A DNA stretch of 64,000 bases. It comes from an uncultured Bacilli bacterium (GTDB lineage Bacteria > Bacillota_I > Bacilli_A > RFN20 > CAG-826). The notes under the pieces were generated by a model, which made no database searches, was not told the DNA's origin, and was given only the letters and a program-made list of their open reading frames with translations. Position 1 is the stretch's first letter; each line of letters begins with the position of its first letter. Made by a program: the position numbers and the translations under genes. Where the stretch lies: positions 111,110 through 175,109 of the forward strand of contig CALVXI010000002.1 of the NCBI GenBank assembly GCA_944368975.1, given 5' to 3'. Below are positions 24,404 through 34,025 of this stretch, in pieces.

Positions 24404-24592
24404 ATGAGTAAAGCATGGAAGGGTGCAATCATCATGTTACTTGTGATTTTGGTTATAGGAGTTATTTTGAGCTTAGGAGCTGTTTCAGATTGGTTTAGAG
24501 CTCCAGTTGAAGAATGGGGAGCTCACTGGGAAGAAATCATCGATGTAATTAAAGGCTCACCAATTACTACTACAGAACCACCTGTAGCTTGA
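24404..24592 (+). CDS. Small single-pass membrane protein
   Basis: RBS GGAGG, TM helix AIIMLLVILVIGVILSLGAV, TGA stop. Confidence 0.6.
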   Translation: MSKAWKGAIIMLLVILVIGVILSLGAVSDWFRAPVEEWGAHWEEIIDVIKGSPITTTEPPVA

Positions 24593-24613
24593 TTTTAAAA
24601 GGAGTTTTAAAAA

Positions 24614-25516
24614 ATGAATAAAAAAACAAAAATTTTAGTTGGATCAATAACAGGATGTGCTTTAGTTCTAGGAGCAGTTGCTACTGGATTAGGTCTTGGA
24701 TTACAAAAACAAGAAATTAAAGATACATCAGGTATTGAAACTACAATTGTTGAAGCTAAAGGAATGAAGCTTCAATTAGCAAGTACTGAGCTATTAGAAA
24801 CTGGCGCAACACAATTAACTTTTGATTATACAATTTTGCCAGAGAACGCTACTAATAAAGCAGTAACAACTTCATTAGCTTGGTCAGAAGATGGCGATAG
24901 TTCGACAGATGATGATACTTTTAAAACGAGTAAGACTGTTACTGACTATGTTACAGCTAGCGAAGATGAAGTTGAGCAACAAATTACTGTTACTTGTAAT
25001 GAAGCTTTCGGATCACAAATTAAGTTGACGATCACTTCAGATGATAATCCGGAAGCTACAGCTGAAGTTAATGTTGACTATCGAATTAAGCGTACATATT
25101 CACTTGACTTTAGCGGTCACACTATTGCTAGTAATGGCCAATGGAGTAGTTTAGCTTCAGGAACTTATCAAGAAAGTGTCGGCACACTTCCTTTTGATGG
25201 AGAGACTTATAGCGTTAAATTAGAGAGTGCAGTAGTCAATTCATCAGTTAGTACAGCTTTAACAAGTTATACAGCGTTATTAGATGCTTTAAAAACAGGT
25301 AATGGAGCAAGTGTATTAACTGAAGTTAATAAACTTAGTGGAGCTGATTATAACACAGCAGTTACTACTTTAAATGCTCATAAAACTGATGCAGTTACAT
25401 TTACTTTAAGTTATGCAACTATCGAAACTAAAGAATTAGTTGCTGGCTATGATTTAGGAAGTACAACTACTAAAGTTGAGGATATTACAGTCGATAATCC
25501 TAATATCATATTCTAA
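24614..25516 (+). CDS. N-terminally anchored surface protein with Big_2-like Ig domain (paralog A)
   Basis: RBS AAGGAG, N-terminal hydrophobic anchor. ILPENATNKAVTTSLAWSED resembles the Big_2 signature. Confidence 0.75.
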   Translation: MNKKTKILVGSITGCALVLGAVATGLGLGLQKQEIKDTSGIETTIVEAKGMKLQLASTELLETGATQLTFDYTILPENATNKAVTTSLAWSEDGDSSTDDDTFKTSKTVTDYVTASEDEVEQQITVTCNEAFGSQIKLTITSDDNPEATAEVNVDYRIKRTYSLDFSGHTIASNGQWSSLASGTYQESVGTLPFDGETYSVKLESAVVNSSVSTALTSYTALLDALKTGNGASVLTEVNKLSGADYNTAVTTLNAHKTDAVTFTLSYATIETKELVAGYDLGSTTTKVEDITVDNPNIIF

Positions 25517-25530
25517 TTAGGAGGTAGAGA

Positions 25531-25614
25531 ATGGTTTATAGAAGAACTAGAAGAAGAAATATTACGCGCAAAACAACTAGAAAACCAAAAGTAATTATTA
25601 TCAAAAAATATTAG
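25531..25614 (+). CDS. 27-aa extremely basic micropeptide (MVYRRTRRRNITRKTTRKPKVIIIKKY)
   Basis: Strong RBS AGGAGG 7 nt upstream of the ATG. 12 of 27 residues are R/K. Too short for the ORF track. Confidence 0.45.
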   Translation: MVYRRTRRRNITRKTTRKPKVIIIKKY

Positions 25615-31345: not shown

Positions 31346-31363
31346 GCTTTTTGAGGTGAAAAA

Positions 31364-31732
31364 ATGGGCATTAAGGTTAACAAGAAAGTTTTAATAATAG
31401 TATCAATCGTTCTATTGATCATAGGATTATTTCTAATTTATTCTGCAAATGCTTTTAGTTATACTAAAGAACAATCATTTAATTCTGATGTTCTTATTAA
31501 TAAAACATTTGTTAGTGAGAATCGTGCTCTAAGATTTAATGACGAAACTAATGGCGAAGCTATTACAACAGCTGACAGTTCAAAATATTATTTATTTACA
31601 TATGAAATAAACAAGTCAACTTTAGTATTAACATATACTAATAATTCGCAAGCTATATTTCTCATTTGTAACGCTGAAAAACTATGGTCAACAGCTAATA
31701 GTTATTTTCTTTATTATGTAGAAGGTATTTGA
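31364..31732 (+). CDS. N-terminally anchored small membrane protein
   Basis: RBS GAGGTG, TM VLIIVSIVLLIIGLFLIY, TGA stop. Confidence 0.6.
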   Translation: MGIKVNKKVLIIVSIVLLIIGLFLIYSANAFSYTKEQSFNSDVLINKTFVSENRALRFNDETNGEAITTADSSKYYLFTYEINKSTLVLTYTNNSQAIFLICNAEKLWSTANSYFLYYVEGI

Positions 31733-31733
31733 T

Positions 31734-34025
31734 ATGAAGAAAATATTTAATAAAGAAAAGATACTTAAATTATTTACTAATAAAAAATTTATTATTTTAT
31801 TTTTATTGGTTATTTTTAGCTTAATTATTTTTAGTATTTTCCCATGTAATTTAGCAAGACTTATATTTAATGTTTATTTTGTGATTGCAACATTAATATT
31901 TTATTTTGCGCATTTATTTGGAGTTAATTATCCTTTGCCTTTAACACCATATGACTTATTTATTAACAATCAACCAGGATCAATTGGTGGTGGTAATGGT
32001 GGTGAATATTATAATGATGTTATTTTTAGAATAAGAACTTATTTCACAATGATCTTTACAGGCTCGTATGCTCAGGAAGGTTTATCAAGTTTAGTTGCAT
32101 CAGGAAGAATTGCGCTTTTAATTATTACATTATTAATATTTTTTTGGATTATTTTTATAATCTTTAATTCAATGTATTTTGATGAAGGTAAATCAGTTAA
32201 ATTCGGCTACACAAAAAACTATTTAAGAATTGATAATTTCTTTAATTCTATTAAAGAAGATGTAAAAGCCTTTTTAAATGTTTTTAATGGCGATTTAAGC
32301 TATAAATTTATTAAGTCGATTAAATTATATTTGATATTCATAATATTACTTAATACAGGTTTATTATCATTAATAATAGAAGTTTATTGTTATTTATTAA
32401 TCTTAGTATCAAGCTTTAATTTAGAGAGCATTTATTGGAGCATACGTAGTTTCCAATTCTATTTTGCCCATTTAACTACGTATATTCCTTTAAGTGCTCT
32501 TATTGTTTTAATTTTTGTTATTTATAATTTATATAGAAAAAGAAAAGCTTATAAAAAGCTTACAAAATACGACGAGAAAAATAAGGAATTTGCTTCTAAG
32601 TTAGGAATAATAATTAGTGTACTAGGATTTCCTGGCGCAGGTAAAACAACTATGGCTGTATCATTGATGCAAGACTATGAAGAAATGTATCGTGAGAAAG
32701 CTTTTAACTTAATGATGAAGCAAAGAAATAAATTCTTAGAATTTAATTGGGCTGAATACGATATTTATCTATCACAAATAATAAGTCAAAATCTAGTATA
32801 TAATAGAGTTCAATTAAGAGAATTGTTAGATAAATTATTAGATGATCAAGTAATTAATAATGAATTATTCAATTATAAATTAGCTAGAAAGATTCAACAT
32901 TATGATGGCTTGATTATTAGTAAATTAAAAGAAGCTTTATTAATCTATGCTGAAGCTTATTTTTACTATTCAAGCGATAAACCTAGATGCTATGCTAATA
33001 GCTCGATTTTATTTAAGTATAGAAAAATAAATAATAATAATAATTCAATGCCTCAATTTGTTTATCGTTATTTTGAGGATGAAACAAAACTAGATAATGA
33101 AGATTATCATCGAAGTTCTTTACTTTATATGGATTTTATGAGCTTAGGAATGAAAGTTAATAAAAACTATGGATGTATTGATTCTGGTATTATCTTTTTT
33201 ACCGAAAAAGATAAAGAATTCGGAAATAAAAACACTAATGCTGGTGAATCTAGAAAAGAAGAAGATAAAGTTAATGTTTATAACAGATTAACAGATGTTT
33301 ATTTAATGTTATCGCAACATTTACATACGATAGATTCGCAACCATTTTTTAGATATATCAACGACTATCAACGATCAGGAACTGTTGGAGTTGATTATGC
33401 TGGAATTACTGAATCGACAATTAATATAGATAGCTCGAATAAAGTAAGGATACTTTATTCGAATTGGATAATTGGAAGAGCTTTATACGAGTTCTTTATA
33501 ACTAGGTTAGAAAATTTCTTTATTAAATCTGCTATAAATAGAGAAGTTCATAATGTTTTTGAATGGATATTAATTAAAGTCTATAATATCCTAGCTCGAA
33601 TTTATTATTATAGAATTAATAGCTTTAGTATAACTGTTAAAAATATATCTGTATTAGGTCATGAAAATGATATGCCTAATAATTATTATTTTTTATGGAA
33701 AAAGATTTATGCAGGTGTTTTTAAAACTGATTGTTTTAAGGAATTTTTTAGTCATATGTACGAAGATAAAGCTAGAGTTTTTGATAGTGAAGAAGTTCCA
33801 GGTGATTATATAACAGAAGATCAATACAAGAAATTAGGCTCTTTATTTATCGATAAGCTTGAAAATTATGATGGTTTAAAAACGATGGAAGAACTTGAAA
33901 AAATAGAAGCTAATAGAAAGAAAATTAAAAATTTAAAAAAATCTAAAAAAGAAAAAAATAATGAAGATTTGCAAGGAAAAAACGAGAAAAAGGCAAATAA
34001 AAAGAAGAAGGAAGCTAAAAAATGA
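31734..34025 (+). CDS. Polytopic-membrane P-loop NTPase (FtsK / T4CP / Zot-like architecture; family unresolved)
   Basis: Several hydrophobic helices in the first ~290 aa. Walker A GFPGAGKTT (nt 32625-32651). Walker-B-like IIFFTE (nt 33189-33206). K-rich tail. ATGA overlap with the integrase. Confidence 0.75.
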   Translation: MKKIFNKEKILKLFTNKKFIILFLLVIFSLIIFSIFPCNLARLIFNVYFVIATLIFYFAHLFGVNYPLPLTPYDLFINNQPGSIGGGNGGEYYNDVIFRIRTYFTMIFTGSYAQEGLSSLVASGRIALLIITLLIFFWIIFIIFNSMYFDEGKSVKFGYTKNYLRIDNFFNSIKEDVKAFLNVFNGDLSYKFIKSIKLYLIFIILLNTGLLSLIIEVYCYLLILVSSFNLESIYWSIRSFQFYFAHLTTYIPLSALIVLIFVIYNLYRKRKAYKKLTKYDEKNKEFASKLGIIISVLGFPGAGKTTMAVSLMQDYEEMYREKAFNLMMKQRNKFLEFNWAEYDIYLSQIISQNLVYNRVQLRELLDKLLDDQVINNELFNYKLARKIQHYDGLIISKLKEALLIYAEAYFYYSSDKPRCYANSSILFKYRKINNNNNSMPQFVYRYFEDETKLDNEDYHRSSLLYMDFMSLGMKVNKNYGCIDSGIIFFTEKDKEFGNKNTNAGESRKEEDKVNVYNRLTDVYLMLSQHLHTIDSQPFFRYINDYQRSGTVGVDYAGITESTINIDSSNKVRILYSNWIIGRALYEFFITRLENFFIKSAINREVHNVFEWILIKVYNILARIYYYRINSFSITVKNISVLGHENDMPNNYYFLWKKIYAGVFKTDCFKEFFSHMYEDKARVFDSEEVPGDYITEDQYKKLGSLFIDKLENYDGLKTMEELEKIEANRKKIKNLKKSKKEKNNEDLQGKNEKKANKKKKEAKK

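Follow-up and report, generated by a model that had tools for sequence, protein, structure and literature searches.

What does a mobile element do with a single membrane ATPase, an integrase and a long run of membrane and secreted proteins, when neither a capsid gene nor a conjugation gene can be recognized in it? The question is raised by part of a 64,000-nucleotide stretch of DNA (the window; contig CALVXI010000002.1 of assembly GCA_944368975.1, positions 111,110–175,109 of the forward strand) from an uncultured low-GC gut bacterium of the Bacilli, in which a first-pass annotation, made from the sequence alone, had seen either a plasmavirus-like enveloped provirus or a minimalist transfer system. 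We find that the region is a real, site-specifically integrating and actively excising 13.4-kb mobile element. As to its nature, we give an even chance to the view that it belongs to a new family of virus-like elements, temperate, non-lytic and without a capsid.

The mobile unit spans 13,390 bp (23,909–37,298) and is flanked by direct repeats of 27 nt that match perfectly and lie at the 3′ end of a tRNA-Leu gene. The left copy of the core, TTTTTTAATTTTGGTGCGAGAAATGAG, forms attL (23882–23908), and the right copy, attR (37272–37298), overlaps the 3′ end of the host tRNA-Leu(gag) gene that is the integration target (37283–37367, minus strand; repeat comparison, ARAGORN and Rfam RF00005). Upstream of the element lie host leuS and tex, followed by a minus-strand helix-turn-helix (HTH) gene. 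When right arm, core and left arm were joined in silico, the resulting attP prediction was found contiguous, at 97.8–97.9% identity over ~670 nt, in scaffolds of two independent metagenome studies (L135 and L137), in which the core connects the right and left ends of the element. L135 (13,413 bp) is colinear with the element and circularly permuted, and L137 (12,922 bp) is a closed circle of ~12.8 kb, since its ends overlap by 99 nt; these are the free circular contigs with an attP junction that the first-pass annotation had suggested looking for. A third contig, L136, terminates precisely at the core, and the study that yielded L135 also contains the form integrated at the same tex/tRNA-Leu site. 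We found no empty attB site; all contigs with the exact flanking Tex protein also bear the element. Assemblies break or wrap at the att core and in the region of the hypervariable gene o461 (L135 1–237 versus 12439–12771; the end of L136; the ends of L133 and L134), which suggests that integrated, excised and variant copies occur together within single samples.

Pfam, PHROGs and NCBIfam recognize just two genes in the element: a Cro/CI-type HTH repressor of 99 amino acids (aa) that is divergent from the long operon (23984–24283, minus strand; PF13443/PF01381, phrog_8) and a tyrosine integrase of 363 aa whose gene overlaps the stop codon of the ATPase gene (34022–35113, plus strand; PF00589, E = 2e-19; phrog_1). 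Between the repressor and the operon, a divergent control region (24284–24403) contains three TTGTA..AAAT(T/A)A repeats, one of them palindromic (ACTTGTAgtaaaTACAAGT), which may be operators. The map of open reading frames (ORFs) and their abutting or overlapping junctions (27826/27836, 28873/28876, 29472/29474, 31732/31734 and 34025/34022) agree with the original description. The statement that all nine plus-strand ORFs in 24404–31732 begin with a signal peptide or transmembrane (TM) helix was too strong: by simple hydropathy, six have a clear N-terminal hydrophobic segment (o62, o300, o348, o198, o623 and o122), o461 is borderline, and o80 and o124 have none. The enrichment itself is real, because such segments are present in 6–7 of these nine ORFs and in 6 of the 38 window ORFs outside the element (Fisher one-sided p = 7e-4 at 7/9, a tally that took an antisense ORF for o80, the sound count being 6–7/9). 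As had been read by eye, no signature of a capsid, portal, terminase, tail, lysis protein, relaxase, VirB4 or rolling-circle replication initiator (Rep) was detected in Pfam, PHROGs or NCBIfam, nor did any element ORF match VirD4 or FtsK_SpoIIIE; for capsid, terminase and portal, ten ORFs were scanned in Pfam and PHROGs and most of the remaining small ORFs in Pfam/NCBIfam. Profile matches to a capsid and terminase, or to a relaxase plus VirB4, had been named in advance as grounds for abandoning the proposal, and none was obtained. The conserved neighborhood of 120 loci that carry related elements likewise contains no capsid, terminase or portal cluster.

The gene preceding the integrase, o763 (31734–34025, plus strand), is the hallmark of the family described below. 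Its product has a membrane domain (aa 1–288), a P-loop ATPase domain (aa 290–720) and a lysine-rich C-terminal helix, and the description of a polytopic-membrane P-loop ATPase followed by an integrase was borne out by ~6–7 N-terminal TM helices and a Walker A motif, GFPGAGKT, at 298–305. K304, E491 and N498 are invariant among 75 homologues, and TExxKERGNQ, RH and DxQR motifs are conserved in the family; judged from sequence, the catalytic core of the ATPase is intact. No Pfam, PHROG or NCBIfam entry matches o763. Comparison of the family profile and of the ATPase domain with PDB sequences gave only non-significant matches (E ≥ 0.056), mostly over the P-loop; the second-best match of the family profile, over the P-loop only (E = 0.1), was 2r2a, which we take to be the N-terminal domain of zonular occludens toxin (Zot). 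In fold searches, the AlphaFold2 model (pLDDT 86.6, pTM 0.83) retrieved only generic AAA+/HerA structures from the PDB (TM-score 0.2 or below). Among predicted viral structures (Foldseek, BFVD), the best matches included an unnamed 269-aa protein (target TM-score 0.58, probability 1.00), and Inoviridae models named “Zonular occludens toxin” were among the top matches at ranks 2, 17 and 34 (TM-score 0.46, probability up to 1.00). The E values of this search were weak (3e-3 to 2e-2 for the best matches, 0.02–0.7 for the Zot models), and the predicted fold of o763 is closest, weakly, to that of inovirus Zot/pI, an ATPase within the FtsK-HerA superfamily (PMC6813254).

We rejected a Zot link at the sequence level. 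None of 65 members of the o763 family matches Pfam Zot or the PHROG families, and hhalign against a purpose-built Zot alignment matched nothing but the P-loop (probability 61–79%, 22 columns), whether run with the complete ATPase domain, with the post-insertion core by itself or with a construct from which the insertion had been deleted. For the ATPase ORF3 of Acholeplasma virus L2, the only plasmavirus ever classified, the outcome was different: the ORF3 family (21 members, with ORF3 at 2278–3216) aligned with Zot/pI over 159 columns (hhalign 96.8%, E = 2.2e-10). On this profile evidence, L2 ORF3 is a Zot/pI-class morphogenesis ATPase with an N-terminal membrane segment, so that an enveloped virus already offers a precedent for a Zot-class ATPase that follows an N-terminal TM region.

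How widespread is this ATPase? A HMMER scan of 1.84 billion representative sequences returned at least 496 clusters of homologues at 50% identity (157 of them at E ≤ 1e-30), nearly all of 700–790 aa and of the same architecture. The o623 family, to which the large anchored protein of the element belongs, comprises at least 476 clusters at 90% identity, some with hundreds to more than 1000 member sequences; all are annotated as “hypothetical” and carry no Pfam domain. Both families occur in metagenomes of digesters and of the animal, human and termite gut. The adjacent anchored-protein/ATPase module is conserved over 40 species-representative genome loci, all in gut metagenome-assembled genomes (MAGs), and 80 metagenome loci, which come largely from human-gut assemblies and other JGI/ENA metagenomes. 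The genomes belong to Clostridia (Christensenellaceae, Ca. Scatosoma, Eubacteriales and Lachnospiraceae), Bacilli and unclassified Bacillota such as Ca. Alloenteromonas. This distribution argues against restriction to wall-less hosts, and it weakens the original suggestion of an Acholeplasma-like host, the family being found mostly in Clostridia MAGs, those of Ruminococcus among them. A full-text search of the literature on plasmavirus relatives, Zot-like enveloped phages and bacterial pleolipovirus-like elements did not turn up a description of the family, which is large, so far unnamed and apparently undescribed in gut Bacillota.

Neighbor clustering revealed a conserved order of o300-type secreted paralogues, an o198-type gene, an o623-type gene, a small TM ORF and the ATPase. 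The large signal-plus-anchor slot is filled by the o623 type or by 474-aa and ~1000-aa variants, and small, very basic proteins are ubiquitous. Downstream of the ATPase the modules are interchangeable: tyrosine integrase, PF23343 REP_ORF2-G2P (an inovirus/plectrovirus-type rolling-circle initiator), PF01446 Rep_1 or an HTH_36/RepL-like protein. The G2P-type Rep (cluster C7) follows the ATPase in 10 of the 40 genome loci, including the circular L040, and Rep_1 does so in others; rolling-circle Reps of these kinds are typical of filamentous phages and plasmids. Three distant relatives are closed circular contigs, L040 (13.7 kb), L060 (12.8 kb) and L120 (12.6 kb); each carries the module and a Rep, and L040 and L120 an integrase as well. 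Because the ORFs are constantly associated with an integrase or a Rep and are found on circular contigs, they are not chromosomal surface-protein genes, the outcome that the first-pass annotation had regarded as fatal to its proposal.

A near-identical element on a contig of another sample (L003) occupies tRNA-Thr, with its boundaries marked at the 3′ end of that gene by a 19-nt repeat that differs from the 27-nt one. The two elements differ sharply from gene to gene: the ATPases are 96% identical and o62, o198, o122 and o763 fall at 95–98%, whereas identity drops to 65% for o623, 50% for the integrase, 43% for o461, 36% for the repressor and 32% for o124. As the repressors are merely 36% identical, the two elements should be of different immunity types. 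The overall pattern is the mosaic one of a temperate element that is actively spreading and whose modules for integration, immunity and surface proteins are interchangeable. Close variants were also present in samples from several studies. Near-identical elements at different tRNA genes, together with these variants across studies, argue for efficient horizontal spread, for which a route of transfer is required.

What might the proteins encoded between the repressor and the ATPase contribute? The first operon gene, o62 (24404–24592, plus strand, as are all genes in this paragraph and the next), encodes a 62-aa protein with a single TM segment by hydropathy, a basic N terminus and an acidic C terminus; it is 98% conserved in L003, is not among the family-wide core genes and is a candidate small structural membrane protein. 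A weak terminator-like hairpin lies at the extreme end of this gene (24570–24587, plus strand) and, if functional, would raise the transcript dose of o62 above that of the downstream genes. In Ff phages, the major coat gene likewise receives a higher transcript dose than the genes downstream. The next gene, o300 (24614–25516), specifies a probable lipoprotein with a lipobox-like ITGC sequence (hydropathy) and belongs to a cluster (C5/K4) present in 31 loci. BLAST identifies it as a paralogue of o461 and o348, with which it shares an N-terminal domain of ~90 aa that looks, by eye, Ig-like (Big_2-like). The secreted or anchored o461 (26441–27826) is hypervariable, its 43% identity to the L003 counterpart comparing with 83–98% for neighboring genes; the L135 scaffold breaks and wraps within this region, and o461 is a candidate host-recognition protein. 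The third, secreted paralogue is o348 (27827–28873), whose true start is likely the ATG at 27836 (gene callers give 345 aa).

Two very basic proteins are encoded within this set. The 80-aa o80 (25701–25943; net charge +15) has no family match and is a candidate DNA-condensing protein. The 124-aa o124 (25950–26324; net charge +16) has a conserved HP..(T/S)H(S/T)..NP core and belongs to a small basic family (K2) found at 36 loci, where it usually lies no more than three genes away from the ATPase. Neither a Pfam search of 39 K2 members nor a comparison of the family profile with the PDB gave a match; PHROGs faintly suggested a MazF-like fold for o124 (E = 0.039), which we discarded because Pfam did not bear it out over the 39 members. 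Next come the N-terminally anchored o198 (28876–29472; 198 aa, family K10), whose position upstream of the o623-type gene is conserved, and o623 itself (29474–31345), a core protein of the family with a signal peptide and a beta-rich ectodomain. The C-terminal TM anchor that had been noted in o623 is confirmed by hydropathy at aa 596–614, and the AlphaFold2 model (pLDDT 81.6) places the beta-rich ectodomain on a C-terminal helix. Searches of the PDB with this model returned nothing but Ig-like or antibody-like beta-sandwiches (probability <0.1), and the family profile matched no PDB sequence; o623 is a candidate adsorption or fusion protein. Between o623 and the ATPase, o122 (31364–31732) encodes a small protein with an N-terminal TM segment, in the position of Ff pVI and L2 ORF2. 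Relatives have small TM ORFs of 32–127 aa in this position.

The region downstream of the integrase contains small genes and a non-coding arm. An uncalled ORF of 54 codons (35192–35356, plus strand; ...YRRFTLRVRYDDQEIINKLESCNSINEYLLSLIKKDIQ), read from the sequence between the integrase and o46, starts with ATA 8 nt after AGGAGG and resembles ribbon-helix-helix (RHH) proteins; it is a possible excisionase (Xis) or CopG-type regulator. It is followed by o46, o116, o70 and o179 (35461–36731, plus strand), small soluble orphans that are 85–98% conserved in L003, have no family match in Pfam/NCBIfam and are candidates for early or replication functions. The 540-nt non-coding right arm (36732–37271) carries terminator-like hairpins (36856–36873, plus strand; 37209–37191, minus strand) and three copies of a repeat, TTATCAATTTTT (37213–37247), of which two further copies lie on the left arm (23989–24013). 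The same motif occurs at the att flanks of L003 (2190–2211 and 15497–15518), where it is kept despite an integrase that is only 50% identical. These repeats could be arm-type integrase sites or replication iterons; they also bear a partial resemblance to the DnaA box. A promoter scan of this AT-rich DNA was uninformative (81 sites versus 95 expected).

Taken as a whole, the observations fit best, by analogy, with assembly at and exit through the membrane, the logic common to L2, the filamentous phages and the archaeal pleolipoviruses. DNA would be passed to the membrane and exported without lysis, with o763 and the small TM protein o122 forming the motor. The exported DNA would perhaps be condensed by the very basic o80 and o124, and the particle coated or enveloped by o62, o198 and the three paralogues o300, o461 and o348. 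Adsorption or entry would fall to o623 and o461, which are anchored and diverge fast, and the HTH repressor and integrase would maintain and reverse lysogeny at tRNA-Leu. We infer all of these roles, as well as the existence of a particle. We favor a temperate, non-lytic, capsid-less virus-like element because the element excises as a circle, has a temperate-type switch and possesses a conserved membrane/ATPase module with interchangeable replication and integration modules, and also because its anchored proteins are hypervariable, basic proteins are ubiquitous, and capsid and conjugation signatures are absent. As to the form of the particle, we prefer, slightly, a lipid vesicle as in L2 over an inovirus-like filament, because of the genome size, the number and size of the envelope-type proteins, the TM-then-ATPase order and the lack of short coat proteins that are conserved. 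The Reps of G2P type, the signal of a Zot fold and the mostly Clostridia hosts pull the other way and keep a filament alive.

Several points weigh against a virus-like element. No particle protein was identified by homology, and o623 yielded no known fold, fusion or adsorption domain in profile and fold searches. The Zot likeness of o763 lies in the predicted structure only, as profile comparisons align the P-loop only, and its PDB fold matches are generic; its layout, with a polytopic N-terminal region, a C-terminal ATPase and a basic tail, is also that of FtsK/TraB-type DNA translocases. The window element lacks a replication gene recognizable in Pfam, NCBIfam or PHROGs. Clostridia are ordinarily walled bacteria, and with many hosts in this class, budding of vesicles through the wall is hard to picture. 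Finally, a search of virus collections found, among 50,697 phage records, one mislabeled bacterial fragment and, in IMG/VR, two contigs that are host-embedded. This near-absence is expected if detection pipelines miss the family, and it provides no positive support either.

If the element is not viral, how does it spread? A fairly unlikely but serious contender is a minimalist conjugative or contact-dependent element like the actinomycete integrative and conjugative elements (AICEs). In this case o763 would be a single translocase that pumps the excised circle into a recipient, the secreted and anchored proteins would be mating adhesins or spread proteins, and the Rep of the relatives would serve in replication or nicking. 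The N-terminal TM helices, C-terminal P-loop ATPase and lysine-rich tail of o763 would suit such a translocase, as would the presence of HerA, of the FtsK-HerA superfamily, among its PDB fold matches. Integration at a tRNA gene, a tyrosine integrase, a possible RHH Xis, rolling-circle Reps in relatives and a cI-like repressor are features that integrative and conjugative elements also combine; moreover, the family is nearly missing from virus collections, and nothing places its members in virus particles. On the other hand, neither Pfam, PHROGs and NCBIfam nor comparison of the family profile with PDB sequences gave any FtsK_SpoIIIE, VirD4, VirB4, TcpA or relaxase signature, and the viral models that come closest in structure are Zot assembly ATPases. 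For a single-translocase element, a “structural” load of seven membrane or secreted proteins plus two to three small, very basic ones would also be unusually heavy, and the gene order mirrors pIII-pVI-pI and L2 ORF1–3. It is still less probable, indeed quite improbable in our estimate, that the element is a genomic island or integrative plasmid without transfer of its own, which would excise, replicate as a circle and mainly provide surface proteins and a membrane ATPase to the host, for example for secretion or for the exclusion of other elements. In favor of this, the core proteins are all orphans of no proven role, and integration, excision and the circle are the only states demonstrated. 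It would not readily account for a very wide and diverse family in which a strictly conserved module is combined with interchangeable integrases and Reps, for a phage-type immunity switch, or for near-identical elements at different tRNA sites with close variants in several studies.

The remaining alternative is a sub-case of the virus-like reading, namely a deeply divergent Tubulavirales-like filamentous phage that extrudes single-stranded DNA through the wall, with o763 as pI/Zot, o122 as pVI, o623 as pIII and o62 or another small TM protein as the major coat. We consider it unlikely. Zot proteins are among the top viral fold matches, the order resembles pIII-pVI-pI, and the 1-nt spacing before the ATPase gene is the same as in M13; the frequency of G2P-type and Rep_1 initiators behind the ATPase points in the same direction, and walled Clostridia are hosts through whose envelope a thin filament could be extruded. 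Inoviruses of Gram-positive bacteria do exist, among them Propionibacterium phage B5 and Enterocloster inoviruses (PMC10061712). Against this, none of the 65 family members matches Pfam Zot or the PHROGs, hhalign aligned the P-loop only, compared with 96.8% for L2 ORF3, and the TM region precedes the ATPase, the reverse of pI. Inoviruses have a pI/Zot-type ATPase as sole conserved marker, several short (30–90 aa) proteins with a single TM domain, and short genes (PMC6813254). Contrary to this pattern, the element has one such short ORF (o62), the circular relatives have zero to three that are not conserved, and genes of 300–763 aa predominate. The genomes of 12.6–13.7 kb, with three to five large secreted proteins, also exceed those of M13 (6.4 kb) and B5 (5.8 kb), which we fetched for comparison, and the window element has no rolling-circle Rep.

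Preferring, then, a temperate and non-lytic virus-like element, we can ask what would follow. A bolder claim, which we consider more apt to fail than to hold, is that gut Clostridia and Bacilli harbor, in this family, a new lineage (at family level or higher) of capsid-less and non-lytic viruses, which would be enveloped and pleomorphic or else atypical filaments, and which would be abundant yet unseen by current detection pipelines. If this is true, its hallmark would be a polytopic Zot-class membrane ATPase together with an anchored entry protein of no known fold; the lineage would bridge Plasmaviridae and Tubulavirales, L2 ORF3 being Zot-like, and would carry plasmavirus-style biology beyond a single Acholeplasma isolate into walled Firmicutes. 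Among phages of Gram-positive gut bacteria, those that are non-tailed and non-lytic are, to our knowledge, barely known, and if these elements are viruses, surveys of the gut virome overlook an entire class of lysogenic agents that persist chronically in Clostridia and Bacilli. If they are conjugative, they would represent a minimal machine for DNA transfer of a new kind. In both cases, the pair of ATPase and anchored protein provides a concrete marker for mining, and the presence of circles in specific public samples makes the choice between virus and conjugation directly testable.

The phage record among the virus collections, MT835493.1 (L001; “UNVERIFIED: Bacteriophage sp.”, 57 kb), was considered as evidence for a virion and rejected, as it is a bacterial fragment. 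It carries a related element with a G2P-type Rep, flanked upstream by UmuD/UmuC-like genes and downstream by genes for PAPS-reductase, DUF4007, class-V aminotransferase and helicase/PLD proteins, which we read as a dnd-like DNA-modification/defence cluster. Elsewhere in the window, a protein with Schlafen AlbA_2, HATPase_c_4 and winged HTH domains (6156–7472, plus strand) adjoins tRNA-Arg and may be a regulator or a defence-related gene. Pfam returned no match at E ≤ 1e-5 for three consecutive host ORFs of 292, 616 and 834 aa (9729–15005, plus strand), of which the two longer ones recur in other contigs of the same organism, again with no Pfam match recorded.

How does the element compare with known systems? 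Its overall logic, temperate, capsid-less and membrane-exported, has clear precedents; its proteins do not. AICEs such as pSAM2 and SLP1 are tRNA-integrating elements of 9–24 kb with a tyrosine integrase, a rolling-circle Rep, one membrane-anchored, DNA-pumping TraB/FtsK-like ATPase and small membrane “spread” proteins. Unlike them, the element has no FtsK_SpoIIIE or TraB-like match, resides in another host phylum, and has many secreted (by eye, Ig-like), anchored and basic proteins. The archaeal pleomorphic viruses (Pleolipoviridae) and the haloarchaeal plasmid pR1SE, which is transferred in vesicles, have a conserved core made up of an anchored spike-like protein, small membrane proteins and an NTPase (PMC7547991; PMC6356626; and general knowledge of these groups). 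Spike structures of pleolipoviruses are probably present in the PDB, from which o623 retrieved neither a viral spike nor a fusion protein in the fold search. They resemble the element in their interchangeable replication modules (rolling-circle Rep or others), in the presence or absence of an integrase, and in being non-lytic and without a capsid, and they differ in having archaeal hosts; the general PHROGs and Pfam scans gave no matches to Pleolipoviridae, with no profile-level test aimed at them.

With the Tubulavirales (Inoviridae, Paulinoviridae and Plectroviridae), the element shares a non-lytic logic, a membrane ATPase as the sole enzyme of the morphogenesis module, Zot among its nearest viral folds, a G2P-type Rep in relatives, and integration, chronic carriage and circular episomes. 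The succession of anchored protein, small TM protein and ATPase is the pIII-pVI-pI order of the Ff phages, which is also that of L2 ORF1-ORF2-ORF3. The differences are the lack of a Zot signal at the sequence level, the TM region of o763 that precedes rather than follows the ATPase, as compared with pI, a larger genome with large genes and few short proteins with a single TM domain, and the fact that the family was not picked up as such in IMG/VR.

The closest parallel is L2. According to the ICTV profile, L2 and Acholeplasma proviruses are the only known plasmaviruses, and the 2018 profile gives the integrase as the only gene that plasmaviruses share with other viruses. Sequence kinship between the element and L2 was sought at several levels. 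BLASTP/phmmer comparison with the L2 proteins gave only a generic HTH (E = 1e-4) and a generic integrase (E = 1e-3), and the profile comparisons added nothing beyond the Walker A motif. By hhalign, the o763 profile (75 members) met the L2 ORF3 profile (21 members) over 22 columns at Walker A (probability 27%), comparison with the single ORF3 sequence aligned the P-loop only, and the other L2 gene profiles, built from two L2-like proviruses that keep the L2 gene order (L138 and L139), reached at most 27% against the element clusters, over signal peptides and TM segments. A search of IMG/VR for L2 relatives found L2 itself alone. L2 ORF1 and the 474-aa anchored protein of L001 (9826–11250) share the heptapeptide FETDGIT, which in both is located ~40 residues ahead of the C-terminal TM anchor; we rejected it as a sign of kinship, since the profile probability was 23% and HMM scores were no better than those of controls.

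There are also differences of substance. ORF3 has 312 aa, compared with 763 aa and ~7 TM helices for o763; L2-type proteins bear Flg_new domains, which the element proteins do not; L2 relies on the host replisome and the relatives of the element on rolling-circle Reps; and the family has mostly Clostridia hosts, whereas the L2 virion is enveloped and buds from the wall-less Acholeplasma. Plasmaviridae is at present defined by kinship with L2 and its proteins (the envelope proteins ORF13, ORF14 and ORF1, the ATPase ORF3, and ORF12, ORF2 and ORF4). Because the comparisons found no homology to any L2 protein, membership in Plasmaviridae is not supported. The parallel in size, gene order and TM-then-ATPase architecture holds: the element is organized like L2. 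The L2 genome (L13696) encodes, in order, ORF12 (multiple TM), ORF13 (signal plus anchor), ORF14, ORF1 (anchored), ORF2 (small TM), ORF3 (N-terminal hydrophobic segment and P-loop), ORF4, the integrase ORF5, attP and a divergent HTH gene. The element has the circular, ~12-kb, tRNA-integrating temperate genome that serves as a criterion of Plasmaviridae. Both genomes are ~12–13 kb, circular when free and integrated at tRNA genes by a tyrosine integrase. In both, a divergent repressor adjoins attP, nearly all other genes abut on one strand, capsid and lysis genes are lacking, and signal-plus-anchor proteins are followed by a small TM protein, an ATPase with an N-terminal TM region and the integrase.

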